Positions 3,274 to 59,709 of a DNA stretch of 64,000 bases are shown here, piece after piece; position 1 is the first letter of the stretch; each line of letters begins with the position of its first letter. Below the pieces are notes generated by a model that saw nothing but the letters and a program-made list of their open reading frames with translations, ran no database searches and was not told where the DNA came from. The position numbers and the translations under genes were made by a program. Source of the DNA: an uncultured Candidatus Saccharibacteria bacterium. GTDB lineage: Bacteria > Patescibacteriota > Minisyncoccia > Phycocordibacterales > Phycocordibacteraceae. The stretch spans positions 119,599-183,598 of the forward strand of contig CAYHLC010000001.1 in assembly GCA_964357395.1 (NCBI GenBank). The letters run 5' to 3'.

Positions 3274-3501
3274 TTCCTATGGCCGAGAAGTGACCAAAAC
3301 CGCCAACACAAGGCGAACAAATGCAGTTCTCGCGCAAGCTCGTGGAGTGGTTGCAGTCGATACTTATGTTGGTGAGGGGAATTGTTGTTCCGCGACCGGC
3401 ATACAGAAGGCAGGAGACCTCGATAAAGAAGAAACCCCACCCACCACGTAGTAGTAAGATCAAGGGAGGGTTTCTCTAGATGCATTTGCTATAATGGGGG
3501 G

Positions 3502-4062
3502 ATGACACCCTTCTATATCGTTTTAGGCGTTGTTGTCGTCATCGGCCTGTACTTGGTCATGACCTACAACCGTTTTGTTACCCTCGTTAACCGCACCAAG
3601 GAGGCATGGGCCGACATCGACGTGCAGCTGAAGCGCCGGTACGACCTTATTCCTAACCTCGTCTCAACCGTGCAGGGCTATGCCGCGCACGAGAAGCAGG
3701 CGTTCGAGAATGTCACTAAGGCCCGCGCAGCTGCAATGGGGGCGCAATCAGTCGAGGATCACGCAAAAGCGGAGAACATGCTGACCGGGGCACTGAAGTC
3801 AATCTTCGCTATTGCTGAGGCGTACCCAGACCTGAAGGCGAACCAGAACTTCCTCGAGCTGCAGCGCGAGCTATCGGATACAGAGAACAAGATCCAGGCA
3901 GCGCGCCGCTTCTACAACGGCAATGTGCAGGATTTGAAGACCGCTCTCGAGCAGTTCCCCTCTAACATCGTCGGCAACATGTTCAGCTTCAAGGGCATGG
4001 ACTTCTTCCTGCTCGCCGCAGACGAGCAAGCCGCCAAGAATCCTGTCGCAGTGAAGTTTTAA
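3502..4062 (+). CDS. LemA family membrane protein
   Basis: Track ORF; N-terminal TM then NRFVTLVNRTKEAWADIDVQLKRRYDLIPNLV... typical of LemA. Confidence 0.85.
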   Translation: MTPFYIVLGVVVVIGLYLVMTYNRFVTLVNRTKEAWADIDVQLKRRYDLIPNLVSTVQGYAAHEKQAFENVTKARAAAMGAQSVEDHAKAENMLTGALKSIFAIAEAYPDLKANQNFLELQRELSDTENKIQAARRFYNGNVQDLKTALEQFPSNIVGNMFSFKGMDFFLLAADEQAAKNPVAVKF

Positions 4063-11120: not shown

Positions 11121-12900
11121 CTTTTCTATTATCGCGCACATCGACCATGGCAAGTCGACACTTGCCGACCGAATGCTCGAGATCACCAAGACCATAGAGG
11201 TACGCAAAATGCGTGACCAGGTCTTAGACGGTATGGACCTCGAGCGAGAGCGTGGGATCACCATCAAAATGCAACCAGTCCGAATGGCCTACACCCTAGA
11301 CACTACACCCTATACCCTCAATCTTATTGATACACCGGGACATATTGATTTCGCTTACGAAGTTTCTAGAGCCCTTACTGCAGTCGAGGGAGTGTTGCTA
11401 CTCGTCGACGCGACGCAGGGCGTGCAGGCGCAGACCTTGGCCACCTTGCGTATGGCGCAGGATGCGGGGTGCACTATCATTCCAGTTCTCACCAAGATCG
11501 ATTCGGGAGCAGCACGCATACCCGAAGTGCGACTTTCGCTCGCCCACCTCCTTGGTGTTGAGGAGGACACCGTGCTCGCCGTTTCCGGAAGAACAGGTGA
11601 GGGGGTGGAGGACCTTATTAAGGCAATCATCGCGCGAGTACCTGCACCGAAGAGCGACTACAAGGGTGCGGGTGGCAAGGCGCTCGTCTTTGACTTTTCA
11701 TACTCTGAGCATCGAGGTGTGGTGGCATATGTGCGAGTCCTCGATGGTGTCATATCTGCCAGGGAGGTAGCGGAACTCGTCGGCGTACAAAAAAAGTTTC
11801 CAGTCCCCGACGTGGGGTACCTCACGCCAGGGGAGGTGAAGGCGGATCGTATCGAGGCAGGAGACATCGGGTATGTAGTCACAACACTCAAGGAGCCGGG
11901 CTCCGGCGTCGTCGGAGATACGCTACGCACTTTTGGTATTGCACTACCCCCCCTACCGGGGTATCAGAATCCGCGCCCCGTTGTGTGGGCCTCTGTGTAT
12001 CCGGAATCGCAAGACGAGTTCACCCCTCTAAAGCACGCGCTCTCGCGACTCAAGCTTGCAGACGCAGCCCTCTCCTTTGAGGAGGATGGCTCGTCGATAC
12101 TCGGCAAGGGCTTTCGTTGCGGCTTCCTCGGCATGCTGCATATGGAGATCGTGACGGAGCGACTGAAACGCGAGTATAGCCTCACTCCAGTTATCACCAC
12201 TCCGTCGATCACCTACGAGATAACCACAACGCAAGGGGAGACGAAGCAGATCTTCTCTCCAACACAGTTTCCGAATGATGGCACCGTAGAGAGCGTGCGT
12301 GAGCAGTGGGTCAAGGCGACTATCATGACCCCACCCGAGTACCTCTCGGGCATCACACAGCTCCTCTACGAGCATGAAGGTGACATCACCAATACGGACA
12401 TGTTTGATGAGCGACTCGAGCTTACCGTGCTCATGCCGCTTCGGGAGTTGATGCGCGACTTCTTTGACATACTGAAGAGCGTATCCAAGGGCTATGCATC
12501 ATTGGCATACGAGTTCGCAGACCTGCGGAGCGCGGACGTGGTCCGGCTCGACATACTGGTCGCAGAGGATTTGGTAGCGGCGTTCTCGCGCGTGGTGTCG
12601 CGCCGACGACTCGAGACGGAAGCACGTTCAGCGGTGGAGCGACTGAAGGAGCTCTTGCCGCGGCAGATGTTCGTCGTTAAGATCCAGGCGAAGGCGGATG
12701 GGCGCATCGTAGCTTCGGAATCGATTAGTGCGTTTAAGAAAGACGTGACGGGGTATCTGTATGGCGGCGACGTGACTCGCAAAATGAAATTGCTTGAAAA
12801 GCAGAAGAAGGGCAAGGAGCGCCGCGGCGAGCAGGGCTCAAATAAAATGCACATCCCGCAGGATGTGTTCCTCAAGATGGTCCGCCCGAAGGACGACTAG
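11104..12900 (+). CDS. lepA: elongation factor 4 (LepA)
   Basis: NFSIIAHIDHGKSTLADRML, DTPGHIDF, and LepA C-terminal domain; overlaps murJ end by 17 nt. Confidence 0.95.
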   Translation: MQNVRNFSIIAHIDHGKSTLADRMLEITKTIEVRKMRDQVLDGMDLERERGITIKMQPVRMAYTLDTTPYTLNLIDTPGHIDFAYEVSRALTAVEGVLLLVDATQGVQAQTLATLRMAQDAGCTIIPVLTKIDSGAARIPEVRLSLAHLLGVEEDTVLAVSGRTGEGVEDLIKAIIARVPAPKSDYKGAGGKALVFDFSYSEHRGVVAYVRVLDGVISAREVAELVGVQKKFPVPDVGYLTPGEVKADRIEAGDIGYVVTTLKEPGSGVVGDTLRTFGIALPPLPGYQNPRPVVWASVYPESQDEFTPLKHALSRLKLADAALSFEEDGSSILGKGFRCGFLGMLHMEIVTERLKREYSLTPVITTPSITYEITTTQGETKQIFSPTQFPNDGTVESVREQWVKATIMTPPEYLSGITQLLYEHEGDITNTDMFDERLELTVLMPLRELMRDFFDILKSVSKGYASLAYEFADLRSADVVRLDILVAEDLVAAFSRVVSRRRLETEARSAVERLKELLPRQMFVVKIQAKADGRIVASESISAFKKDVTGYLYGGDVTRKMKLLEKQKKGKERRGEQGSNKMHIPQDVFLKMVRPKDD

Positions 12901-20777: not shown

Positions 20778-20828
20778 TTATATACCCCATGAGATGACGC
20801 AGGCTATCTCACGGGGTATACTCCCCAA

Positions 20829-21374
20829 ATGATCTGGCTGTATCCAACTGATACGCTTTTTGGGCTTGGGGCCGATGCTACGGACCCGGCTGCTATCGCT
20901 GTGCTCCGCGAGCTGAAGGGGAGCCCGGGAGAAAAGCACATTTCGATAGTAGTCGCCGACCTAGCAATGATGCGGCAGTATGCGGAAGTAACTCCGCTAG
21001 CGGAAAAGCTGGCTGCTGCGTTCCTACCTGGCAAGCTGACACTCGTACTGAACGCTAAGAACTTGCCGAAGGACCTGTCGGAAGATGGCACTATCGGCAT
21101 ACGCATTCCGAACCACCCGGTGCCGCTCGCGCTGGTGCGCAAGCTCGGCAAGCCCATTACGGCGACGTCGGCTAACGTTTCGGGGCAGCCGTGCATGATG
21201 AGCGTGCCGGAGATACACGACCAGTTTGGAGACAAGTACTACCTACTCAAGCGCGAGGACGAGTGGCCGATGTGGCTACCACCATCCGCCCCCTCAACTG
21301 TTGTGGACGCCCGTGGTGACACCCCAATTGTGATCAGAGAGGGCGCGATCACTACTCAGCAAATATTCTTCTAG
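20829..21374 (+). CDS. tsaC: L-threonylcarbamoyladenylate synthase TsaC/YrdC
   Basis: YrdC-domain pattern: YPTDTLFGLGADATDP...GKLTLVLNAKN...KPITATSANVSGQP; ATG 6 nt after TATACT. Confidence 0.85.
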   Translation: MIWLYPTDTLFGLGADATDPAAIAVLRELKGSPGEKHISIVVADLAMMRQYAEVTPLAEKLAAAFLPGKLTLVLNAKNLPKDLSEDGTIGIRIPNHPVPLALVRKLGKPITATSANVSGQPCMMSVPEIHDQFGDKYYLLKREDEWPMWLPPSAPSTVVDARGDTPIVIREGAITTQQIFF

Positions 21375-30904: not shown

Positions 30905-32938
30905 ATGATCAGTCAGCAGCTCTTGGAGCATGCACGCGAGCAACTCGCCGCTGGCGTGTCGCCCGAAGCGCTCGAGCAAGAGCTACTGAAGCATGGTTGG
31001 GCAGCAGATGGTGTTAAGGAGGCAATCACGGCTGCGTCGAACTCGACGATCATAACTCCGCGTATCACGCCACTCCCGGCGCACGCTGCGGTGCCTCAGA
31101 TGCCCGCAATGACGGGTGGGCGGGGTGGCGAGTGGATGCTACTTACCGGCATTGCGGTAGGAATTGGCGCGCTTATGTATTGGGGCCTCAGTATGGTCGT
31201 ACCGCCGGAGCTATCGCTCTTTACGCTATTCGAGCCAGAGGCACAGGGTATGTGGTTTTACTTCCTTATCCCGGGTGTTGTTATTGGCCTACTTGCGCTC
31301 GGCGCGAGCTCCGTGTGGGGTGTGCGAGTCATCTGGGCTGAGGGTAAGCCGATACACGGGTTCCTGCTCGGAGTGTCGGTGTACCTCCTGCTCCTCTTTG
31401 GAATAGTAGAGGCAGCGCAATACGCCGCAGCGCAGTATGCAAACACACTTCCTGAAGACGGACCTTTTGTTGTTGGACTCATGTTCTCTAGCTCGTTTCT
31501 GTACTCGGCGCAGATCTTTTATGGCCTCCTCGTCATACTGATGCTGGTGCTGATTGTTGCCTCGCGTCGAAGGCAGCGCGAGCCGCTAAAAAAGCGCGCG
31601 CCGTGGGTGGTGTATGCACGCGGAGCTATTATCGCTGCTGGTGTAGTACTAACGCTGTACGTGTTCGGTGCAGCAGCGCCGGTAGCTCTCATAACTGGAG
31701 AGCAGTGGGTGTGCAATGCCGTGTACCCAAAGCAGATTAAGACGAGGTGCTTCCTAACCAACACTGCAACCCTAAGCGAGACCTCTGCACCATCTGGCGA
31801 ATTTGTTATCGAGAAGAGTGGCTACGCAGAGATCAAGGACCTGCACGATATTGGAGGCAAGCTGGCATACGCGTTCGAGAACGATGACGGAACGTCCGGC
31901 GTTGTGTACGACGGCAAGGTGGTGAGTGGCGCGTATAGCAAAGTAGGAATACTGCCTATCGAGGACCTGGGCGGCAAGCTGGCATACGAAGCGATAAAAG
32001 GCGATAAGACGATAATAGTCTACGACGGCGACGAGTACGGACTGGAGTACGACAGAGCACATAGCCCTACCCTAGTTGGAGGCAAGCTGGCGTTCCTCGC
32101 GCAGAAGGGGACAGTGCGCCCCGACATTAAGCAGGTAGTGGTGTGGGACGGCAAGGAGTATGGCACCGAGTACGCGGGCACAGGCAACATTATGGATATC
32201 GACGGCCAGCTGGGATATCAGGGGGGTACGCTCAATAATCAGTATCTTGTTGTAGGAGATACGAAGTACGGACCGTACCAGTTCATCAGCTGGACCAAGT
32301 ACGAGGGTGGGCACACAGTGTCGAAGGTGAGGAAGAACGATGAGCAGCTGTACCTCGTCGACGGAGTGGAGATAGGCAATACGGACTACGACTACCTCAC
32401 CGACATGTACGCATTTGTTGATGGCAAGTTTGCGTTCGCTGGGGCAAGGAACAAAGAGCTGTTTGTTGTGTACGACGGCAAGGAGGTAGGAGTCGGAAGC
32501 GGGTCATCAGAGGTCGGGCCATTCCGCATTAACAACAAGCTCGCATACATCGACGTAAATGTCGACGGGACAGCGCAGCTCTTCGTCGACGGCGTCGCGA
32601 CGGGGCCGGTCTTCGAGGACCGAGTTAACAATGTTGCCGTTTCAGAGCAGGGCAAGGTGGCAATACAAACAGAGAGCGAGACCAAGGAGATGGCGGTGTA
32701 TATCGATGGCAAGGAGGTGTACCGCGGCAAGGGCGGCAACCCGTTCGGCTTCTTCGGCGAGCGGCTGTTGGTGTGGGTCAAGGAGGACGGGCTCGACGGA
32801 CTTTGGATCGACGGCAAGGTGGTTGGTAAGGGCTTCTTCGGCTTTAGTTATATCGAACTCGTGAATGGGAGGTTCGTCATAGTGGGGAGTGTCCGCGTGG
32901 GTGACAAGATAGAGAGGTCGCTCCTTATAGAGCAATAA
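30905..32938 (+). CDS. polytopic membrane protein with ~9 tandem ~35-aa beta-repeats (WG/KLAY-type)
   Basis: N-terminal helical domain, 5-6 TM, then repeats of form GGKLAY.a..dG...vVYDGKEyG.EYD. Confidence 0.6.
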   Translation: MISQQLLEHAREQLAAGVSPEALEQELLKHGWAADGVKEAITAASNSTIITPRITPLPAHAAVPQMPAMTGGRGGEWMLLTGIAVGIGALMYWGLSMVVPPELSLFTLFEPEAQGMWFYFLIPGVVIGLLALGASSVWGVRVIWAEGKPIHGFLLGVSVYLLLLFGIVEAAQYAAAQYANTLPEDGPFVVGLMFSSSFLYSAQIFYGLLVILMLVLIVASRRRQREPLKKRAPWVVYARGAIIAAGVVLTLYVFGAAAPVALITGEQWVCNAVYPKQIKTRCFLTNTATLSETSAPSGEFVIEKSGYAEIKDLHDIGGKLAYAFENDDGTSGVVYDGKVVSGAYSKVGILPIEDLGGKLAYEAIKGDKTIIVYDGDEYGLEYDRAHSPTLVGGKLAFLAQKGTVRPDIKQVVVWDGKEYGTEYAGTGNIMDIDGQLGYQGGTLNNQYLVVGDTKYGPYQFISWTKYEGGHTVSKVRKNDEQLYLVDGVEIGNTDYDYLTDMYAFVDGKFAFAGARNKELFVVYDGKEVGVGSGSSEVGPFRINNKLAYIDVNVDGTAQLFVDGVATGPVFEDRVNNVAVSEQGKVAIQTESETKEMAVYIDGKEVYRGKGGNPFGFFGERLLVWVKEDGLDGLWIDGKVVGKGFFGFSYIELVNGRFVIVGSVRVGDKIERSLLIEQ

Positions 32939-43526: not shown

Positions 43527-44675
43527 CTATTTGCGGGAGCGGTTGATGGACTGGATCAGCTTATCGACCGTGACTGAGGCCTGCATCTGGGAGGTAGAGG
43601 AGCGGACTATGACGGTGTTATCGAGCGCCTCGCGCTGGCCGATGATAGCGATATACGGAACACCGAGCATCTTGGCCCGCTCCATCTGCTCCCGAAGGGT
43701 CTCAGCGAGGAGTGCCTGCCGTACAGAGACCCGCGCGCGCCAGAGAGCTTCGAGTAGGGTAAAGGCTTTCAGCTTGGCAGCCTCGCCGACATGGACCACG
43801 TAGCATTGCGCTTGCTCGAACTCCTCGTCCAGCTCAACCTCCTGCGGGACAGTGACCGCGATGCCGACTGCGGCGGTGGCGCCGATCTTCTTATTGGCAA
43901 ACTCGTCAAACCGACCGCCCTCTGCAACTACCGAGCGCACACCTTTCTGCATGCCAGTTACAGCGAAGAGGAGTTCCGACTCGATGCCGGGCGCGGAAGG
44001 GAGGTGTGGTGCGAGTGTATACGCGATACCAACTGACTCGAAGAGGGCCAAGGTGTCCATCATGACCTTCCTAGAGTTCTCTGACAGGTAGTCGATGGGG
44101 CGCGGCAACCGCTCCCGCAAACTATCATCACTTGCGAGTAGCGCACGGTACGCTGCGTCTGGATCTTTGGTTGCGCTCTCCTTGGTATCTCCTGATAGAG
44201 CGTCGCTGTTGCGCTTGAAAAAGGACGTGAGCTCGCGCGTGAAGCGTCTGCGCGACTCACCATCGCCAACAGAGGAGACCATCACTTGGCACTCCTCGAA
44301 CCCGGAGAGCTCGGCTATCGAGAGCGCGGTCTTGACCACCAGCGCGTGCGAGAGCGAGTGCCGACCACTCGTTACAGAAAAGGTGAGTGTGGTGCCGCCG
44401 CCTTTCTTCGTGAGTCCCCATGACTGCGCGGGCTTGCCCCGTGAGATAGCCTCTGTCATCTCATGGGGCTTGCCACCTGCCTGCGCAGGCAGGCCTGCAG
44501 GAGTAGCGGAAAGAAGTGCCATCACTGCAGCGGTGTGGTGGTCGACGTCGCCCTGATCCGCGATGGCGCGTCGGCTAAGAGTGATCGCGGGAGAGGTAAA
44601 TCCGTATGCCGAGGCAACCTGCATTACAGCTTTGTCTAAAGACTCACGACGCGTGCCTCGCTCGAGTGATCTCAT
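43527..44675 (-). CDS. class II aminoacyl-tRNA synthetase-like protein (HisS or HisZ-like, divergent)
   Basis: Motif-3-like GGRFDEFANKKIGATAAVGIAV and anticodon-binding-domain pattern GVPYIAIIGQREALDNTVIVRS; N-terminal motifs 1/2 not recognisable by eye. Confidence 0.5.
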   Translation of the reverse strand: MRSLERGTRRESLDKAVMQVASAYGFTSPAITLSRRAIADQGDVDHHTAAVMALLSATPAGLPAQAGGKPHEMTEAISRGKPAQSWGLTKKGGGTTLTFSVTSGRHSLSHALVVKTALSIAELSGFEECQVMVSSVGDGESRRRFTRELTSFFKRNSDALSGDTKESATKDPDAAYRALLASDDSLRERLPRPIDYLSENSRKVMMDTLALFESVGIAYTLAPHLPSAPGIESELLFAVTGMQKGVRSVVAEGGRFDEFANKKIGATAAVGIAVTVPQEVELDEEFEQAQCYVVHVGEAAKLKAFTLLEALWRARVSVRQALLAETLREQMERAKMLGVPYIAIIGQREALDNTVIVRSSTSQMQASVTVDKLIQSINRSRK

Positions 44676-48216: not shown

Positions 48217-48422
48217 GCAGGTTTGACATGGCTAGGGCGTAGCGCATAATGGCGGCATGGCAGGATTCGAGAATGCACCAAATAGACTTGAGGGTAGCGT
48301 TTGGTGCTCGGGGTGCACATCTCGCGTAAGTGCTTTTTCATTGGACGGTGGACAAAGCTGGACCAAGTATGTGCACTCGCCTTGCGACGATGAATAGCAC
48401 CAACCTCTGATATACTCGACGC

Positions 48423-49046
48423 ATGGTTATACAGAAAGTAGGAGGGTACTGCTTCAAGATCTCTGCAGGTCCAGTCACGGTGGCACTCAACCCGCCAGGG
48501 ACAAAGAGCAAGCTGAAGGTCAACAAGTTCGGATCGAACTTGGTGATGATTGCCGTGCGGAACGATGATTGGGATGGAGCGGAGACAGCGAGCCACGGGG
48601 ACAAGGAGCCGTTCGTCATCTCGGGCCCCGGTGCATACGAGGTAGGCGATATCACGGTGTCCGGCTTTGCAACTGCAACTGACTATGATGGCCACAAGGA
48701 AGTGGGGAACACGGCGTACGTATTTGAGATGGACGGCATCAAGGTACTCGCGCTCGGTGCGATATCGAATGGAAAATTGCCGCAGGACCTGCGCGCCGAG
48801 CTCGACGATATCGGCATCGTGCTTGTCCCGGTTGGCGACGGTACCCTAGATCCGAAAGCCGCGCACGAGCTGGTGGTGGCCTTGGAGCCCAAAATCATAA
48901 TCCCGTACGGAGTCGGCAAGGATGGCGACGCTGCCGTTAAGGCCTTCTGCAAGGCCGAGGGCGAGAGTCCAAAGGAGGAGGAAAAGCTCACCATTCGCGC
49001 TAAAGAAGTCCAAGAAAAGGACGGCGACGTAGTACTATTGGCGTAA
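48423..49046 (+). CDS. MBL-fold metallo-hydrolase
   Basis: Beta-lactamase-fold pattern with conserved H/D (AVRNDDWDG..., LVPVGDG, ...); ATG 6 nt after TATACT. Confidence 0.7.
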   Translation: MVIQKVGGYCFKISAGPVTVALNPPGTKSKLKVNKFGSNLVMIAVRNDDWDGAETASHGDKEPFVISGPGAYEVGDITVSGFATATDYDGHKEVGNTAYVFEMDGIKVLALGAISNGKLPQDLRAELDDIGIVLVPVGDGTLDPKAAHELVVALEPKIIIPYGVGKDGDAAVKAFCKAEGESPKEEEKLTIRAKEVQEKDGDVVLLA

Positions 49047-53779: not shown

Positions 53780-55069
53780 ATGAAACCATTTCAGGCGGCA
53801 GTACTCGGAATCTTCCTCTTCCTCGCCTTGGTTGGCGTCTTTGTGTTTGCCACCTTTACCTCCTCACGCCAGGATGCTATCGGTGAGGTGGTCATCTGGG
53901 GCTCCTTGCCGCAGGACATTGTGGACGACCTCCTTACTATTGTGCGCGGAACACGAGATGATTTTAATGGAGTGACGTATCGCGATTTTACTAAGGAAGA
54001 GCTAATGCCGACCCTGGTGCAGGCTATCGCCTCGGGCCGCGGGCCGGACCTCATACTCTTCCCGTCCTCTGCGTTTGTTAAGGATGGCGACAAGCTGCAA
54101 CCTATTTCCTACAGCACCGTGCCCCGCAGGACCTTTCAAGACACCTTTGTCGAGGCAGGCGAGATATTCCTCACCGCAGAGGGCATCGCTGCGCTTCCCA
54201 TGACTATCGATCCAACGGTTATGTACTGGAACCGCACCATGTTTGCAAACGCAAGTATTGCGCGTCCACCAAAGTATTGGGACGAACTTGCAACACAGGC
54301 GCCAAAGTTGACTAAGAAGCAGCCGAACGGATCTCTCATAACAAGCGCGGCTCCGCTCGGCAGCTGGGACAACGCGACTCATCCTAAGGAAATATTGGTA
54401 ACGCTGCTACGCCAGCTCGGCACTACGGTTATTACTCGCGATGAGGAGGGGCTGTATCGCAATGTACTAGCGGGTACGAATGATGCGGAGGTGTCACCTG
54501 CAGAGTCTGCCATCCACTACCTGGTAGACTTTGCAGACCCCGTTAAGCCGAACTATAGCTGGAACCGATCGCAGAAGAACGCCAGGGACGCGTTCCTCGC
54601 TGGCACTCTCGCGCTCTACTTCGGGCCAGCGTCCGAGCTGCTCTCCATCCGTGAGTCGAACCCGAACCTTAACTTTGATGTCGCACCTATGCCGATAGCC
54701 CGTGGGGGCGGCGAGGGAGTCTATGCCGACGTGGAGGCACTCGCGGTGCCGCGAGGCGCGGCGAACCCTGGTGGAGCGACGGCAGTCGCACTCATCCTCG
54801 TATCAGCGCCGATATCGACCGAACTTGCCAAGGCGACACGCCTCCCATCACCCCGCCGCGATGTGCAGCTGGACGCATCCGCGGATCAATACTTAACCAC
54901 GTTCCGCGCATCGGCGCTCAAGGCGTTCGCATTCATGGACCCAGACCCGAGTGCCTCGAGTGCGATATTTAGTCGTATGATCGATAATGTTGCCTCGGGC
55001 CGCTCGCGTATATCCGAGGCCATCCGAGCTGCGGATGAAGAGTTGCGAGTCCTTATTCGGGTGCAATAA
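53780..55069 (+). CDS. extracellular solute-binding protein (family 1-like), orphan
   Basis: N-terminal TM/signal, ~400-aa periplasmic-binding-fold pattern; no permease or ATPase gene adjacent. Confidence 0.5.
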   Translation: MKPFQAAVLGIFLFLALVGVFVFATFTSSRQDAIGEVVIWGSLPQDIVDDLLTIVRGTRDDFNGVTYRDFTKEELMPTLVQAIASGRGPDLILFPSSAFVKDGDKLQPISYSTVPRRTFQDTFVEAGEIFLTAEGIAALPMTIDPTVMYWNRTMFANASIARPPKYWDELATQAPKLTKKQPNGSLITSAAPLGSWDNATHPKEILVTLLRQLGTTVITRDEEGLYRNVLAGTNDAEVSPAESAIHYLVDFADPVKPNYSWNRSQKNARDAFLAGTLALYFGPASELLSIRESNPNLNFDVAPMPIARGGGEGVYADVEALAVPRGAANPGGATAVALILVSAPISTELAKATRLPSPRRDVQLDASADQYLTTFRASALKAFAFMDPDPSASSAIFSRMIDNVASGRSRISEAIRAADEELRVLIRVQ

Positions 55070-55076
55070 TGTGTCT

Positions 55077-55400
55077 ATGATCAAAAGAGCATTTGCACTC
55101 ATTGTGCCCACACTCCTCCTTTCGCCTATCGTGGCGCTCGCTGCACTTACGAACCCGCTGCAGACTGCGAGTCTCTCACAATTCCTCACGATGCTCCTGC
55201 GACTCGTTGCAGAGATAGCCTCGCCGATCATCGTCCTTATGATTGTGTACATCGGCTTCCTGTTCATTACCGCGCAGGGCAATCCGGATAAGCTGAAGAA
55301 GGCCAGAGAGTACTTCCTCTGGGCTATGATCGGCGCCTTGCTCGTCCTTGGCGCGTACGCACTCTCGCTCGCTATCGAAGGGACCGTAAGCCAACTCTAG
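55077..55400 (+). CDS. VirB2/TrbC-like (T4SS-pilin-like) small protein, paralog 1
   Basis: Signal-like N-terminus MIKRAFALIVPTLLLSPIVALAA, helix LLRLVAEIASPIIVLMIVYIGFLFITAQ, loop GNPDKLKKAREY, helix FLWAMIGALLVLGAYALSLAI. Confidence 0.55.
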   Translation: MIKRAFALIVPTLLLSPIVALAALTNPLQTASLSQFLTMLLRLVAEIASPIIVLMIVYIGFLFITAQGNPDKLKKAREYFLWAMIGALLVLGAYALSLAIEGTVSQL

Positions 55401-55401
55401 T

Positions 55402-55671
55402 ATGCCGCAAGTAGGACAAAAGCCAGAGAATCTGACAGAGCTCATACAGATGCTCACGAGCATCGTAGGAGCGTTCATCCCCGTTGCGGTCGGGTTCTGC
55501 GTTGTTGCTTTTGCATGGGGGCTGATGACCGTCCTGATGGATACGGACAACGCGGATAAGCGCAAAGAGGGCTCGAAACGTATGATCTGGAGTGTCCTCG
55601 CGCTCTTCGTCGTCCTCTCCCTTGGCGGCATCATTGAGATTCTGAAGGCCACACTACTTGGTGAACAATAA
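55402..55671 (+). CDS. VirB2/TrbC-like small protein, paralog 2
   Basis: LTELIQMLTSIVGAFIPVAVGFCVVAFAWGLMTVLM - DTDNADKRKEGSKR - MIWSVLALFVVLSLGGIIEIL. Confidence 0.55.
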   Translation: MPQVGQKPENLTELIQMLTSIVGAFIPVAVGFCVVAFAWGLMTVLMDTDNADKRKEGSKRMIWSVLALFVVLSLGGIIEILKATLLGEQ

Positions 55672-55767
55672 GAGCTACGGCTATCCACACGGTACTCGCT
55701 TGGGGGTCTTGAGCGGGTAGCAGCAGGGTACACTGTAAGAAGTTAATAATATATTGATACTAATTAC

Positions 55768-56109
55768 ATGAACACGCTTTTGAAAGTTGGCTCTATTGCA
55801 TTCCTCGCGGCCCTCCCGGTTGCGGCGTTTGCAGATACATTAATCGATGTGGCAAACACTATCGGAGATATCGTCGGCATCGTAACGCCTATCGTCGTTG
55901 CTATCGCCCTCATCCTCTTCTTCTGGAACCTCGCTATGTACTTCATAGGCAAGGAGGAGGACAAGAAGAAGGCCGTCTCCGGCATGATCTACGGCGTCCT
56001 GATCCTCTTCGTCATGGTATCGATCTGGGGTATCGTCAACGTCTTGCAAGACACCTTTAACGTCGGTGGTACGCAGACGGTCACACCGCCTAACGTACAA
56101 GGCATCTAA
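55768..56109 (+). CDS. VirB2/TrbC-like small protein, paralog 3 (clear signal peptide)
   Basis: MNTLLKVGSIAFLAALPVAAFA | DTLIDVANTIGDIVGIVTPIVVAIALILFFWNLAMYFI - GKEEDKKKAVSG - MIYGVLILFVMVSIWGIVNVL; ATG 6 nt after GATACT. Confidence 0.6.
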   Translation: MNTLLKVGSIAFLAALPVAAFADTLIDVANTIGDIVGIVTPIVVAIALILFFWNLAMYFIGKEEDKKKAVSGMIYGVLILFVMVSIWGIVNVLQDTFNVGGTQTVTPPNVQGI

Positions 56110-56114
56110 GTACT

Positions 56115-56312
56115 GTGGAGGATAGGAAGAGCATACTCGAGACCGTGAAGCCGAGTGACGCTCTAGTGCGCCTCGGCTCTCGGCAATCTGGATTCCGTAT
56201 GTGGGCGGTGGTCATAGCCGTGCTCTTCCTCTTTGGTGTTGTGATAGTTGCTGCAAGCATCTTTAACTCAACTGGTGCATCTAATGAGCCAGTACCATCA
56301 GTAAGTATCTAG
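56115..56312 (+). CDS. small TM protein (65 aa, GTG start)
   Basis: Track ORF; one TM (WAVVIAVLFLFGVVIVAASIF). Confidence 0.3.
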   Translation: MEDRKSILETVKPSDALVRLGSRQSGFRMWAVVIAVLFLFGVVIVAASIFNSTGASNEPVPSVSI

Positions 56313-56313
56313 T

Positions 56314-56559
56314 ATGGACGCACTCACCGGATTCGTCGACAACTTAGTGCGGCTCATCATCCAGCCGCTCGTCGTGCTGCTCCTCACTGCAGGCGTGGCG
56401 TACTTCATTTGGGGCGTTGGTACGTACCTATGGAAAGGGGAGAAGGGCGAGGATCGATCGAAGGCCGCGCAGAACATGCTCTGGGGCCTCATCGGCCTCG
56501 TCATCATGGTCGCTGTCGTTGGCCTCCTCGAAATCCTAACCTCCACCTTCGGGGTCTAG
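56314..56559 (+). CDS. VirB2/TrbC-like small protein, paralog 4
   Basis: LVRLIIQPLVVLLLTAGVAYFIWGVGTYLW - KGEKGEDRSKAAQN - MLWGLIGLVIMVAVVGLLEIL. Confidence 0.55.
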   Translation: MDALTGFVDNLVRLIIQPLVVLLLTAGVAYFIWGVGTYLWKGEKGEDRSKAAQNMLWGLIGLVIMVAVVGLLEILTSTFGV

Positions 56560-56993: not shown

Positions 56994-57490
56994 CGAAATT
57001 ATATGGCAAGAGAGGATTCATACCGCCCCACACGAACTGAGTTTATCCTAATTGCAGCTATTCTCTTGTTGGTAGTTGCGGGTATCAATATTGCGCCAGG
57101 GGAAGGCGCGGCAATCGATGCGTCGGAAGGTAAGTTTACTCCAAAGAGCAATCCTGATTTATACCCTAATTAAATTGTGTGGCATTTGAAGGAGACCAAC
57201 ACAAGCCAGAGCCTAATTATCTCCTCAGAGGCGCGCTATTCATTTTTGCAGCTGTCTCGATATTTATAATGCTCGGCATATCCGGTCCTTCGGGCATTGA
57301 GCTTGAGTGAGAGCATACATCCTGCAGAAGCGGGGTTTTTGTTTTGAGGCCTTTAATTAATCTGTATATCTGTTAGTATTCTGACTGTCCCCGATGAGGG
57401 GGCGGAGTGAACTACTCGCGCCCATAAGCGAAGCTTTTGGGCGCTGCACTCGGACGCCATGAGTGCAAGCACTCGCGGCGTCACTCGTTT

Positions 57491-57566
57491 GCGCCCATAG
57501 CTCAGCTGGTAGAGCAACCGACTCTTAATCGGCAGGTCCTTGGTTCGAATCCAAGTGGGCGCACCA
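57491..57566 (+). tRNA. tRNA-Lys (anticodon CTT), CCA encoded
   Basis: Acceptor GCGCCCA/TGGGCGC, D-arm GCTC-AGCTGGTA-GAGC, anticodon loop CTCTTAA, T-loop TTCGAAT. Confidence 0.9.
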
Positions 57567-57571
57567 AGAAC

Positions 57572-57600
57572 AAAACATCCCACCTGCGTGGGATTTTTGT
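57572..57600 (+). terminator. rho-independent terminator after tRNA-Lys
   Basis: ATCCCAC-CTGC-GTGGGAT then TTTTGTT. Confidence 0.85.
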
Positions 57601-57737
57601 TACTTGGTGCGAGACGGAGCCGTGTTTTCTGTTTCAGAAAACGGGCGAGTCGGGGCCTGCGTGCGCAAGCGAACGGAGGTGAGCTTGTGACATGTGGGCC
57701 ACTTGTGCGGGACGGAGCCAAGTCTTGTGCATTGTAC

Positions 57738-57767
57738 TATTCGCGCGAATTAGAGCATGAGGGTTTG
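57738..57767 (+). promoter_or_regulatory. conserved ~30-nt motif with perfect palindrome TTCGCGCGAA (copy 1), upstream of HAD hydrolase gene
   Basis: TATTCGCGCGAATTAGAGCATGAGGGTTTG; 31/33 identical to copy at 59074..59102. Confidence 0.5.
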
Positions 57768-57806
57768 CGGGCTTGTGACGGTCATTAGGCAAGGTACACT
57801 TATGCA

Positions 57807-58538
57807 ATGCTGCAGTTGCCGAAGGCAGTTTTGTTTGATATCGACGATACATTGACCCACAGCTATGAAGAGCCGGCTCAGGAGTTGGTGGCAGACCTCG
57901 ACTCACTCATAGCCAGAATCCCTGTTGCTATTGTCTCCGCGGCCAGCTTTACACGCATTGAAAAGCACTTCCTCAGCGTCCTAGTGTCGCACCAAAAGGA
58001 GGGCAAGTTGTATATCTTTTCCAACAATGCGTCCCAATGTTTTTTGTTCAGAAACTCGCAGTGGGAGCTAGAGTACGCATTTGGCATGACGGATGAGGAG
58101 CGCGGGAGCATAAAGGCTGCAATTAGTGAGAGCGCAGCAGAGCTTGGTATCGAGCACAACGTCATTGATAGGGAGACAAAGATTGTGTACCACGGCGTCT
58201 CAAACGATGCTCACCAAGATATAAAGAAGGCATGGGACCCTGATATGGCAAAGCGGAGTGGTATGAAGTCGGCACTCGAAAAGCGCATATCAGGGTATGA
58301 GATCTTGATTGGGGGCACGCACACGCTCGATATCACCAAGCAGGGGGTCAACAAGTCGTACGCGGTGGAGTGGCTCGCAAAGGACCTCAAGGTCGCGCCC
58401 GCAGAGATGCTCTTTGTTGGTGACGCACTGTACGAGGGCGGAAACGACGCTGTCGTAATCCCAACTGGCATACAGACCCGCCAGGTGGCCGGCCCACACG
58501 AGACACATGTACTTATCAAAGAACTACTTACACTCTAA
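57807..58538 (+). CDS. HAD-superfamily hydrolase (Cof/HAD-IIB-like)
   Basis: Motif I VLFDIDDTLT, motif II/III and C-terminal GD..ND. Confidence 0.8.
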   Translation: MLQLPKAVLFDIDDTLTHSYEEPAQELVADLDSLIARIPVAIVSAASFTRIEKHFLSVLVSHQKEGKLYIFSNNASQCFLFRNSQWELEYAFGMTDEERGSIKAAISESAAELGIEHNVIDRETKIVYHGVSNDAHQDIKKAWDPDMAKRSGMKSALEKRISGYEILIGGTHTLDITKQGVNKSYAVEWLAKDLKVAPAEMLFVGDALYEGGNDAVVIPTGIQTRQVAGPHETHVLIKELLTL

Positions 58539-58540
58539 GT

Positions 58541-59050
58541 ATGAAATGGATAGGAATTACCGGTAGTTGGCGTGCGACAAGCGCCGAGGTGGAGCGGGAC
58601 GTACGCGACTTTGTGCGCACAGCGATAGAGCGCGGAGACGGTATCGTTACTGGCGGAGCACTGAACGTCGACTACTTCGCAACCGACGAGGCGCTGAAGT
58701 ATGACTCCGGGGCGGATCGAATAAAGACCTTCCTCCCCGCGACGCTGGATCGGTACGCCGCCCACTACCGCAAGCGGGCAGGGGAAGGGGTGATAACGAG
58801 CGAGCAGGCAGAACAGCTTGTGGCACAACTAACTGAGGTCAAGCGGAGGAATCCGAATGCGCTTATAGAGAACCTGACTAACGAGATTGTAGACAAGACT
58901 AACTATTACAATCGGAATACCGACGTTGTCGACGCATCAGACGAACTGGCCGCATTCCAAGTCAACGAGAGCAAGGGTGCGCAGGACACGATAGACAAAG
59001 CCAGGGCGCAAGGGAAGCCGGTGACTCTCAAACAGTACACCATTCAGTAG
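58541..59050 (+). CDS. Rossmann-fold protein of the DprA/LOG (SLOG)-like type
   Basis: GITGSWRATSAEVERDVRDFVRTAIERGDGIVTGGALNVDYFATDEAL resembles the DprA/Smf and LOG nucleotide-binding core (hGiTG...ivSGgA.GiD); function unknown. Confidence 0.4.
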   Translation: MKWIGITGSWRATSAEVERDVRDFVRTAIERGDGIVTGGALNVDYFATDEALKYDSGADRIKTFLPATLDRYAAHYRKRAGEGVITSEQAEQLVAQLTEVKRRNPNALIENLTNEIVDKTNYYNRNTDVVDASDELAAFQVNESKGAQDTIDKARAQGKPVTLKQYTIQ

Positions 59051-59073
59051 CTCTGTACATTTCCTTATTTCCT

Positions 59074-59102
59074 TATTCGCGCGAATTAGATAATGAGGGT
59101 TG
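59074..59102 (+). promoter_or_regulatory. conserved motif with palindrome TTCGCGCGAA (copy 2), upstream of def
   Basis: TTATTCGCGCGAATTAGATAATGAGGGTTGG; preceded by tandem TTCCTTATT x2. Confidence 0.5.
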
Positions 59103-59154
59103 GTTGAGGGTTGTGAAAGTGCGTGCAGCGTTTTGGGTTTGATATAGTAGCCAC

Positions 59155-59709
59155 ATGAGTACAGATTTCGTTGCGAGGCTGAAGGCTCTAGAGAGGGTAT
59201 TGATGGAAGTGCCGGAGCTTACCTATGCAGGGAACCTGGTGCTGCGCACCCCAGCTGCAGAGGTCACAGTAGATGAGGGTAAGGACATAGCTTCGAGGCT
59301 GGAGGACGCACTCCTAAAGTATCGTGCTATTACTGGCACCGGCCGTGGACTTGCTGCGCCGCAAATTGGTGTTGGCAAGGCGGTGTTTATTACGTACCTG
59401 GAGGACAAGATTGAAGTGTTCTTGAACCCTAGGATTGTCGGGAAGTCGGGGGAGACCAGTATGTATAAAGAGCTCTGCATGAGCGTCGGCGTGGTGGCAG
59501 CTGATGTGGAGCGTCCGCAATGGATAGTGCTCGCATGGACCGACTTGGAGGGCAATGCGCATGAGGAGAAGTTCGATTCCTTTAAGGCACGCCTCTACCA
59601 GCACGAGGAGGCGCACCTCCGTGGCCTCCTCAACATTGACGAGGCAGTGTCGGGAGGTATCGAGCTTGCCAACTTTGACCCACTTAAGGAGCAGCTCCGT
59701 CCCAAATAG
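59155..59709 (+). CDS. def: peptide deformylase
   Basis: Motif 1 GRGLAAPQIG, motif 2 ELCMS, motif 3 QHEEAHLRG. Confidence 0.9.
   Translation: MSTDFVARLKALERVLMEVPELTYAGNLVLRTPAAEVTVDEGKDIASRLEDALLKYRAITGTGRGLAAPQIGVGKAVFITYLEDKIEVFLNPRIVGKSGETSMYKELCMSVGVVAADVERPQWIVLAWTDLEGNAHEEKFDSFKARLYQHEEAHLRGLLNIDEAVSGGIELANFDPLKEQLRPK

Follow-up and report, generated by a model that had tools for sequence, protein, structure and literature searches.

A 28-nt element occurs twice in the window, the whole 64,000-nt stretch of DNA that was analysed, once upstream of a gene for a HAD-IIB family hydrolase and once upstream of the peptide deformylase gene def. The repeat is real and not a chance match, and the element is specific to the host lineage. 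By analogy with palindromes around an ArsR-family gene on another contig, the copies may be a duplicated operator-like site recognised by a winged-helix regulator that acts as a dimer; we put this forward tentatively, as the best of several explanations. The host is represented by a Hainich groundwater Patescibacteria MAG.

The repeat pair and its genomic context

Copy 1 (57738-57765) and copy 2 (59074-59101) are identical at 26/28 positions (93%) and lie 1336 nt apart, as found by a repeat search of the 64-kb window. They sit where the sequence-only reading had placed them and, as it stated, both are non-coding and upstream of genes. Its distances of 40 and 53 nt to the start codons are close to the 39 nt (HAD) and 51-52 nt (def) found here. 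The claimed length of 33 nt with 31/33 identity does not hold, as the consensus as written comprises 30 nt and is identical at 27/30. The features of the locus are as follows.

57491..57601, + strand: tRNA-Lys(CUU) and intrinsic terminator, left landmark
57600..57737, + strand: non-coding stretch from the tRNA-Lys terminator to copy 1
57738..57765, + strand: repeat copy 1, 28-nt core TATTCGCGCGAATTAGAGCATGAGGGTT (gapped extent 57734-57779)
57773..57809, + strand: putative leaderless HAD promoter (-35 TTGTGA 57773-78, 16-nt spacer, -10 TACACT 57795-57800, 6 nt, ATG 57807)
57807..58538, + strand: HAD-IIB family hydrolase, phosphomannomutase-like (Pfam, NCBIfam), first bracketed gene
58541..59050, + strand: 169-aa protein with a DprA-like (SLOG/Rossmann) domain, second bracketed gene
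59074..59101, + strand: repeat copy 2, 28-nt core TATTCGCGCGAATTAGATAATGAGGGTT (gapped extent 59054-59117)
59140..59157, + strand: putative leaderless def promoter (extended -10 TGaTATAGT 59140-48, 6 nt, ATG 59155)
59155..59709, + strand: peptide deformylase (def), downstream of copy 2

With up to three mismatches, the pattern TATTCGCGCGAATTAGANNATGAGGGTT matched only the two known copies in 64 kb, and 100 dinucleotide shuffles yielded no match at all, which bears out the earlier judgement that a chance origin is unlikely. Both copies are unchanged in independent assemblies of the same population (L001, L002, L003). When a 2-nt indel is allowed, their similarity reaches a common TTGTGA (57773-78 and 59111-16), and the repeat unit is therefore about 45 nt long; sequence-model matches to this unit in the window lie at 57734-57779 (copy 1) and 59070-59117 (copy 2). 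No third copy was found in about 75 kb of the genome, including about 10.8 kb of added flank, and the two known ones are intergenic. Whereas identity is 93% over the central 28 nt, the flanks have diverged through indels and short tandem slippage, an uneven conservation that is compatible with constraint on the centre.

The 10-bp core TTCGCGCGAA is a perfect palindrome, as had been noticed before. Taken alone it is unsurprising (3 matches with at most one mismatch versus 3.0 expected), and thus significance rests on the whole 28-mer. Perfect symmetry extends to 12 bp, ATTCGCGCGAAT, at 57739-57750 and 59075-59086, and an 18-bp near-palindrome, CT(t/-)ATTCGCGCGAATTAG, surrounds this core in both copies. 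The palindrome of the host copies can be described as approximately 8-2-8 with degenerate outer arms. An imperfect palindrome of 36 nt (59063-59098) is moreover centred on copy 2 and has TTTCCTTA twice on the left and TGAGGGTTG twice on the right. Judged by its symmetry, the palindrome is a plausible protein-dimer site.

The non-coding stretch at 57600..57737 is partly conserved in the relatives L034 and L036; it holds a repeated GTGCG(A/G)GACGGAGCC and a hairpin that shows compensatory changes. HAD homologues are widespread in Paceibacterota. The second bracketed gene is called DprA-like only, because its score is below the family cut-offs; it has its own TACACT-N6-ATG signal within the end of the HAD gene. 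A terminator scan placed intrinsic terminators at 57319 and 57577 and none at either copy. The copies were rejected as intrinsic terminators, since no U-tract follows the palindrome and canonical terminators exist in this genome.

Position relative to putative leaderless promoters

Genes in this genome are mostly leaderless and carry the signal TGnTAnnnT-N6-ATG without a conserved -35 element, the -10 box lying 6-7 nt upstream of the ATG. This signal precedes 23 of the 65 called starts versus 6% of all ATGs and is conserved in the relatives L009, L010 and L034. The -35 hexamer TTGTGA of the HAD promoter is the rightmost part of copy 1 in its extended form, and the layout TTGTGAC-N16-TAnnnT-N6-ATG is also found at the orthologous position in L034. 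The def promoter is kept in L009 as TGgTATAGT-N6-ATG, though L009 lacks the repeat.

Relative to the putative starts, the 28-mer spans -69..-42 at HAD and -81..-54 at def, which puts the palindrome centres at -62.5 and -74.5, respectively; the -10 boxes follow 29-41 nt downstream of the 28-mer. As the genes are leaderless, each copy is thereby located upstream of its core promoter, and the palindromes overlap neither -35 nor -10. The suggestion that the motif occupies the place of a -35 element is therefore not tenable, the 28-mers ending 42 and 54 nt upstream of the starts. The offsets of the two sites to their own promoters differ by 12 bp.

Related palindromes around an ArsR-family gene

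Seven pattern matches were obtained in public metagenome contigs, and only L016/L018 was meaningful. On this CPR-like contig, the same core with ATGAGGG arms occurs three times around an ArsR-family regulator gene, whose product scores 28 bits for HTH_5 against a cut-off of 22 in L016. The sites have the form ATATCCCTCATTCG-NN-CGAATGAGGGATAT, a 14-2-14 palindrome, and all three fall within 1.4 kb, 33 nt before the ArsR gene, 15 nt after it and 35 nt before a neighbouring gene. From its layout, this arrangement looks like an operator set. In L016, the palindromes form perfect 40-48-bp hairpins (dG -49.7, z -9.9), two of them directly after stop codons. The identity of the core is given by construction, because the sites were found with the host-motif pattern, so that independent evidence comes from the architecture and the arms only. 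The similarity of copy 2 to the L016 arms continues beyond the pattern used for the search (left arm, p=0.0006). The outer half-sites of the host copies match the L016 consensus at 6-9 of 14 positions only.

A cognate ArsR-family gene often adjoins its operator. The cognate HTH regulator that the sequence-only reading proposed to look for nearby did not turn up: no HTH gene was seen near the copies in translations of 60-420 aa ORFs read by eye, and tblastn with the L016 ArsR protein detected no relative in the 64-kb window or the approximately 10.8 kb of extra flank.

ArsR/SmtB proteins bind 12-2-12 imperfect inverted repeats near promoters (PMC8790569). Like such operators, the host core is palindromic around a central dinucleotide and present in one or two copies near promoters. 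In contrast, the host palindrome is shorter (~8-2-8) with degenerate outer arms, the sites are located 40-80 bp upstream of the promoters and not over them, and no ArsR gene was found in the host fragment (window plus ~10.8 kb flank).

Class I activator sites of E. coli, exemplified by CRP, are centred at -61.5 or -72.5. The host centres at -62.5 and -74.5 resemble them, with both the starts and the activator being putative here. Unlike CRP/FNR sites, the host sites have an unrelated sequence and occupy positions 12 bp, not 10-11 bp, apart.

The copies as possible duplicated operator-like sites

According to the operator reading, the repeat would be a locally duplicated cis-element whose working part comprises the 18-bp near-palindrome CTnATTCGCGCGAATTAG and the adjoining ATGAGGG unit. 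Each site, centred at -62.5 or -74.5, might be bound by a dimeric (winged-)helix-turn-helix protein, by analogy of the ArsR/SmtB type, encoded outside the window. The sites could act as upstream (class-I-type) activator sites. Alternatively, they might serve as roadblocks or insulators, setting HAD apart from the tRNA-Lys/non-coding transcript, and def apart from the HAD-DprA-like unit. DNA looping, with the two sites bridged over their spacing of 1336 bp, is a further possibility. One copy was probably made from the other via a short segmental duplication, independent convergence being less likely, because the near-identity of the copies extends to their non-palindromic 3' part and to a TTGTGA whose place does not suit def. 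Neither a significant RNA fold nor an Rfam match was found, which points to a role at the DNA level.

Several observations speak against the operator reading. Only two copies are known in about 75 kb, and no regulator gene turned up in the ORF translations or by tblastn in the window and added flank. The palindrome overlaps neither core promoter, unlike the L016 sites; the 12-bp difference in offset does not correspond to a whole helical turn; and the def promoter is intact in L009 without the element. Moreover, 26/28 identity including the non-symmetric 3' half exceeds the needs of regulon sites, and a recent functionless duplication would account for it equally well. The earlier notion of a shared regulator site is strengthened in one part by the operator-like architecture of which L016/L018 provides an analogue. 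A regulon would have the motif upstream of several genes, and two copies were seen in about 75 kb.

Possible recombination or duplication at the tRNA-Lys locus

The main rival to the operator reading, in our view an unlikely one, takes the copies as direct repeats at the ends of a HAD + DprA-like block that was inserted or rearranged at a tRNA-Lys hotspot; they would be att-like, relic or still in use, and any promoter effect incidental. It draws on a geometry that the sequence-only reading overlooked. As a direct repeat, the copies enclose precisely the two-gene block of HAD and DprA-like genes, which begins 172 nt past tRNA-Lys, and this arrangement beside a tRNA gene supports a recombination or duplication origin. 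Furthermore, the near-perfect identity begins and ends abruptly, and only two copies are known. The TTGTGA of copy 2 looks like passenger sequence, because it is a -35 element only at copy 1.

Each lineage has another gene in the slot that separates the tRNA-Lys region from the DprA-like gene, namely HAD here, a DUF6886-like gene in L034 and a methyltransferase gene in L036. Synteny of HAD, DprA-like and def was not detected outside the closest clade among the relatives compared, nor did these relatives contain a further copy of the repeat. In L034, L036 and L009, an unrelated but conserved repeat of ~30 nt occupies equivalent places, namely on both sides of the DprA-like gene and ahead of def. 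It likewise brackets the DprA-like gene as a direct repeat in L034 and L036, and L009 has one copy, before def, as expected of an unoccupied site. A repeat matching the 3' end of a tRNA is a classic mark of integration into a tRNA gene, and the sister-repeat copy L034a matches the adjacent tRNA-Lys 3' end at 16/18 positions, a score that none of 300 shuffles reached.

On the other side, no integrase or recombinase gene was seen near the locus, neither among the Pfam-marked calls of L001 (~50-63 kb) nor among the 60-420 aa ORFs read by eye; Pfam scans covered the proteins next to the repeat, and the other window proteins were read by eye. The composition of the HAD and DprA-like genes is native in GC and GC3 (GC3 z -0.14 and +0.23), and a foreign origin of the bracketed genes was rejected (z within about 1). 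In contrast to the sister repeat, the host repeat has no significant similarity to the host tRNA-Lys (p=0.38 and 0.68). The DprA-like gene is kept at the locus in three lineages and hence is not recent cargo. In the relatives, the repeats enclose this conserved gene rather than the variable neighbour. Conservation of the sister repeat between species that share just 77% identity in the DprA-like protein argues for function and not for a scar, and the maintenance of this repeat at equivalent places indicates that these positions tend to carry a selected cis-element. Finally, no relative displays an empty site consisting of tRNA-Lys, one copy and then def.

Taken as tRNA-linked attL/attR sites, the host copies fit in that direct repeats of tens of bp flank a block beside tRNA-Lys at a locus whose content, as in tRNA-linked islands, varies between lineages; the resemblance of one repeat copy to the tRNA-Lys 3' end is confined to the sister lineage. 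They differ in that the host repeat is not tRNA-derived, the cargo is native and includes a locus-conserved gene, and no integrase was seen near the locus.

Homology of the host repeat to the sister repeat was rejected (p 0.06-0.9; sequence-model cross-searches empty). The bracketing repeats by lineage are TATTCGCGCGAA... here and the partly tRNA-derived GGTTCCAAC...CCATAGGG in the sister lineages. Conceivably, though we consider it improbable, the DprA-like gene beside tRNA-Lys always lies between two ~30-nt repeats in this Paceibacterota clade, and the entire repeat sequence is exchanged from one lineage to the next while the neighbouring slot turns over. This would amount to cassette-like recombination at lineage-specific sites without an integrase, or to a co-evolving boundary-binding protein that insulates leaderless units.

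Extragenic palindromes, promoter modules and RNA elements

There is little probability that the copies are REP- or MITE-like extragenic palindromes or gene-end hairpins or insulators, i.e. decayed palindromes of the L016 type behind genes, which would act on transcript 3' ends or merely propagate. The DprA-like gene ends 12-24 nt before copy 2, which is the centre of the imperfect 36-nt palindrome described above, and the L016 versions are the perfect hairpins of which two directly follow stop codons. All five sister-repeat copies begin 0-4 nt after a stop codon, one of them between two convergent genes, a place without any promoter to serve. However, the host copies have the core and the right arm in common and not both arms, folding of their RNAs does not surpass that of shuffled sequences (z -0.09 and -1.49) and differs between the two, and the palindrome is not followed by a U-tract. 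Only two copies occur in ~75 kb, and neither target-site duplications nor a RAYT or transposase gene were seen. The host copies are like REP elements in being short, imperfect, intergenic palindromes of lineage-specific sequence after stop codons, and unlike them in their number, the lack of conservation of both arms, the lack of a stable hairpin and the lack of a visible RAYT gene.

It is very improbable that the repeat is a promoter module, providing -35/-10 elements for a housekeeping or alternative sigma factor and giving rise to leadered HAD and def mRNAs or to antisense transcripts; on either strand, starts would then be expected 5-10 nt past the TAGANNAT box. Indeed, TTAGATAAT and TTAGAGCAT retain A2 and T6 of the -10 hexamer, copy 2 has a minus-strand consensus match (TTCACA-16-CATTAT), and the right end of copy 1 supplies the -35 TTGTGA of HAD. 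But the consensus scan found 1 such site with 1.1 expected by chance, detecting no plus-strand sigma-70 core promoter (-35/-10 with a 16-18 nt spacer) inside the repeat, and neither copy has an acceptable -35 16-18 nt upstream of the putative -10. The minus-strand site is far weaker in copy 1, no Shine-Dalgarno sequence is present for a leadered mRNA, and the promoters of this genome follow TGnTAnnnT-N6-ATG without a conserved -35.

Least probable of all is a transcribed RNA element (leader, riboswitch-like element, sRNA or small ORF): although copy 1 ends the conserved, possibly transcribed non-coding region after tRNA-Lys and the DprA-like gene would have copy 2 in its 3' UTR, Rfam 15 finds only tRNA over 57100-59400 even at E<=10, neither copy folds significantly or has a structure in common with the other, the sister repeat has no consensus structure, the motif-internal ATG opens ORFs of 33 and 4 codons that are not conserved between the copies, and the leaderless starts leave the element outside the HAD and def mRNAs.

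Comparison with known elements and public sequences

A tRNA-like origin was suggested by TTAGAGCAT, which matches a 9-mer of the tRNA-Phe D-arm, and was rejected, as alignments to tRNA-Lys were not significant. Integron attC sites consist of R''/R' core sites (RYYYAAC / GTTRRRY) in an imperfect palindrome of 55-140 nt and are served by an integrase. The copies do not fit, having no AAC/GTT core pair and too short a palindrome, with no integrase seen near the locus. In a comparison by eye, none of the dif/Xer 11-6-11, attC and parS/NBS palindromes, of the CIRCE, LexA, Fur, Rex, CRP/FNR and LacI-type operators, or of the sigma-54, ECF, sigma-B, sigma-H and ComX cin-box promoters fits. A Fur-like GATAATGA in copy 2 was dismissed, being absent from copy 1.

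Public genome contigs yielded five pattern matches (Verrucomicrobia, Gammaproteobacteria, Acidobacteria), about the chance number as estimated by hand. Among public viral contigs there were 15 chance matches to the 15-mer, mostly coding; none of the three public collections contained a further copy of the repeat. In the viral contigs the sister motif had no match, and the L016 core had one, in a coding region.

Implications

At present this is a well-documented but ordinary-looking pair of cis-elements, known from two copies. Patescibacteria/CPR possess few regulators and cannot be cultured on their own, and to our knowledge the control of their transcription is barely known. If the operator reading is true, it would provide a concrete operator sequence together with a candidate regulator family (ArsR-like) for these bacteria. 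The leaderless signal TGnTAnnnT-N6-ATG would represent a promoter grammar of the lineage, and the two adjacent, individually promoted units with a common upstream site would make a small test case. The tRNA-Lys-linked locus, with its turnover of genes and repeats, would likewise bear on how reduced genomes are rearranged.

The repeat and its gene context

A repeat search of the window returned two 28-nt copies with 93% identity, 1336 nt apart, placed among the genes as follows.

Features around the two repeat copies (window positions)
57491-57566, tRNA-Lys(CUU), followed by an intrinsic terminator
between this terminator and copy 1, about 140 nt of non-coding DNA
57738-57765, copy 1, TATTCGCGCGAATTAGAGCATGAGGGTT, read in the sequence
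57807-58538, HAD-IIB hydrolase gene
58541-59050, gene for a DprA-like protein of 169 aa
59074-59101, copy 2, TATTCGCGCGAATTAGATAATGAGGGTT, read in the sequence
59155-59709, def
next after def, gene for a YbaK-like deacylase

Because of this order, the copies form a direct repeat that encloses a block of two genes, a geometry absent from the sequence-only reading. The paired motif upstream of two genes that it described is real: with up to three mismatches the consensus occurs at two sites only in 64 kb, both being the known copies, and in 0 of 100 shuffles. However, this consensus comprises 30 nt with 27/30 matches rather than the 31/33 originally counted. The perfect palindrome also stood: it reaches 12 bp and, as a near-palindrome, 18 bp, but the 10-bp core by itself is nothing unusual. 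When a 2-nt indel is allowed, the likeness extends to a TTGTGA common to both copies, giving a unit of approximately 45 nt. Conservation is uneven: the centre is closely kept, whereas the flanks have slipped. Copy 2 is flanked on either side by short tandem units (TTTCCTTA twice and TGAGGGTTG twice) and lies in the middle of an imperfect palindrome of 36 nt.

DNA identical to the locus is present in Hainich groundwater assemblies (well H41), and its deformylase carries the label Patescibacteria group bacterium. Sequence models built from both copies found no third copy in the window, the related contigs or about 10.8 kb of extra flank. A species-representative genome collection, which does not include the source genome, gave five matches in unrelated phyla, approximately the hand-estimated chance number, and scans of viral contigs gave chance matches only. 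Neither the motif nor conserved synteny was seen around homologues of HAD (62% identity at most) or of def (78% at most). The repeat is a lineage-specific element.

Several other features were seen in the window. A 24-bp inverted repeat at 57560-57611 takes in the tRNA-Lys terminator and the tRNA 3′ end (CGCACCAAG...CTTGGTGCG), an arrangement also found after tRNA-Lys in the related contig L034. A series of small membrane proteins with T4SS-pilin (PF18895/TrbC-like) matches occupies 54987-56559, immediately upstream of the tRNA-Leu and tRNA-Lys genes, and a prepilin-like ORF of 56 aa lies at 57003-57173. A second repeat of 32 nt (30/32), itself a hairpin (CCCCATGAGAT-N10-ATCTCACGGGG), occurs in inverted orientation at 20785-20816 and 44437-44468, 23.6 kb apart; one copy adjoins the -10 box that serves the gene at 20829, and the other falls within a long ORF (43527-44675) that may in fact begin at a later start codon. 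Internal repeats at 31853-32823 in the 677-aa gene 30905-32938, with periods of about 110 and 330 nt (GTTGTGTACGACGGCAAGG, GGAGGCAAGCTGGCATACG), suggest a repeat-domain protein.

Position relative to promoters

A TAnnnT resembling a -10 box, in many cases with TGn in front, stands 6-7 nt 5′ of 23 of the 65 called start codons as compared with 6% of all ATGs (TGnTAnnnT examples: 3485-3504, 20811-20831, 48405-48425 and 59140-59157). Window genes with this signal have neither a Shine-Dalgarno sequence nor a clear -35 consensus. HAD is preceded by TTGTGA-N16-TACACT-N6-ATG, the DprA-like gene by TACACT-N6-ATG and def by TGaTATAGT-N6-ATG. The -10/ATG layout is retained in L034, ahead of def in contig L009 (protein 78% identical) and ahead of the HAD homologue on L010. 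We infer from such patterns that leaderless promoters are apparently in use in this genome, with transcription from the ATG.

Counted from these presumed starts, the 28-mer covers -69 to -42 at HAD and -81 to -54 at def, with palindrome centres at -62.5 and -74.5; the sites thus lie off the promoters and are offset to one another by 12 bp. The repeat therefore lies 5′ of both core promoters rather than forming a -35 element, contrary to one earlier proposal. Its sole part at a -35 position is the TTGTGA that ends extended copy 1 on the right; in copy 2 this hexamer is separated from the def -10 by 26 nt, a distance at which it cannot act as -35. That the repeat is a promoter module is very improbable. 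The only sigma-70-like match of the region is an antisense TTCACA-16-CATTAT within copy 2 (59090-59117, minus strand), a match count at chance level, and this site is far weaker in copy 1.

Related loci

The DprA-like protein is highly conserved through Paceibacterota (65-81% identity, hundreds of clusters). Its nearest relatives are on contigs L034 (81%) and L036 (80%), where the locus is partly retained. In L034, tRNA-Lys(UUU) and a terminator precede a homologous non-coding stretch, a DUF6886-like gene and the DprA-like gene; L036 begins within the homologous stretch and continues with a methyltransferase and the DprA-like gene. Each lineage hence has an unrelated gene of its own between the tRNA-Lys region and the gene for the DprA-like protein (HAD, 57807-58538; L034, 1446-1979; L036, 126-932), and with this lineage-specific content the locus resembles a hotspot of local rearrangement.

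The non-coding stretch is conserved in all three lineages (window 57600-57737; L034 1186-1300; L036 1-110). GTGCG(A/G)GACGGAGCC occurs in it twice, at 57607 and 57705, a hairpin at 57623-57644 keeps 7 pairs relative to L034 by changes on both sides, and in L036 the stretch ends in an intrinsic terminator. Window positions 57600-57737 have no Rfam match. The stretch is a candidate for an unannotated small RNA.

In L034 and L036 the DprA-like gene has on either side a copy of a different direct repeat, GGTTCCAAC-N3-GT(C/A)CCATAGGG-N-CCAC (that is, GGTTCCAAC-N3-GTMCCATAGGG-N-CCAC), without detectable similarity to the window repeat.

Copies of the sister repeat
L034, 1980-2010 and 2535-2565
L036, 936-965 and 1495-1524
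L009, 857-885, before def

It is kept between L034 and L036 despite only 77% identity of their DprA-like proteins; the more distant relatives L035, L037 and L038 lack flanking repeats. All five copies start 0-4 nt after a stop codon, one lies between convergent genes, and the next -10 follows at no fixed distance (32, 33, 37 and 48 nt). A consensus RNA structure is absent. Copy L034a matches the 3′ end of the adjoining tRNA-Lys at 16/18 positions, a score reached by 0 of 300 shuffles.

A similar palindrome around an ArsR-family gene

A metagenome scan yielded L016/L018, a CPR-like contig coding for VKOR and DsbA-like proteins, in which the ATTCGCGCGAAT core of the window repeat centres a perfect 48-bp palindrome of ATGAGGG/CCCTCAT units (fold dG -49.7, z -9.9). 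A model of the two window copies and the first two L016 copies revealed a third. All three (11227-11266, 11575-11618 and 12565-12605, likewise in L018) share a 14-2-14 palindrome, ATATCCCTCATTCG-NN-CGAATGAGGGATAT, and are placed 33 nt before an 86-aa ArsR-family gene (Pfam HTH_5, above cut-off), 15 nt after it and 35 nt before its oppositely oriented neighbour; DsbA-like and VKOR genes lie beside it. Probably this set represents a repressor with its operators, a layout in agreement with the 12-2-12 inverted-repeat operators of the ArsR/SmtB family (PMC8790569). The window copies share with L016 the inner core, identical by construction as L016 was found by searching with the window motif, the following AG and the second ATGAGGG unit in register. 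Outside the searched pattern, the arms of copy 2 resemble those of L016 (left arm, p=0.0006). In contrast, the outer half-sites of the window copies are degenerate.

Interpretation

We favour a putative DNA-level protein-binding role because of the palindrome, the uneven conservation, the lack of RNA signal, the L016 analogue and the fact that sister lineages likewise tend to have a conserved element at these places. Tentatively, both copies may be operator-like binding sites. A regulatory function, as proposed from the sequence only, is thus partly supported by the palindrome and L016 but unproven. There are just two copies, no regulator gene was found near the repeat among translated ORFs of 60-420 aa or by tblastn with the L016 ArsR protein, the offset sites do not overlap the promoters and the def promoter is independent, all of which count against a simple operator, as does an identity of the copies more typical of recent duplication.

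It is possible, though doubtful, that the copies are recombination or duplication junctions at a tRNA-linked locus. In favour are the direct-repeat layout next to a tRNA gene, the exchange of genes in the neighbouring slot and the resemblance of the sister repeat to tRNA; however, no integrase is visible among the ORFs inspected near the locus, the bracketed genes are not foreign in composition, the window repeat is not tRNA-derived and no empty site was found. The two ideas are not exclusive, as a functional site may have been copied by a short duplication. A REP-like or gene-end element, as the stop-codon proximity of the sister repeat might recall, is improbable, and an RNA element scarcely credible, with no RNA signal for the copies in Rfam or folding. 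The most noteworthy part of the finding is the wider pattern, in which the repeat pair around the DprA-like gene is exchanged for another from one lineage to the next.
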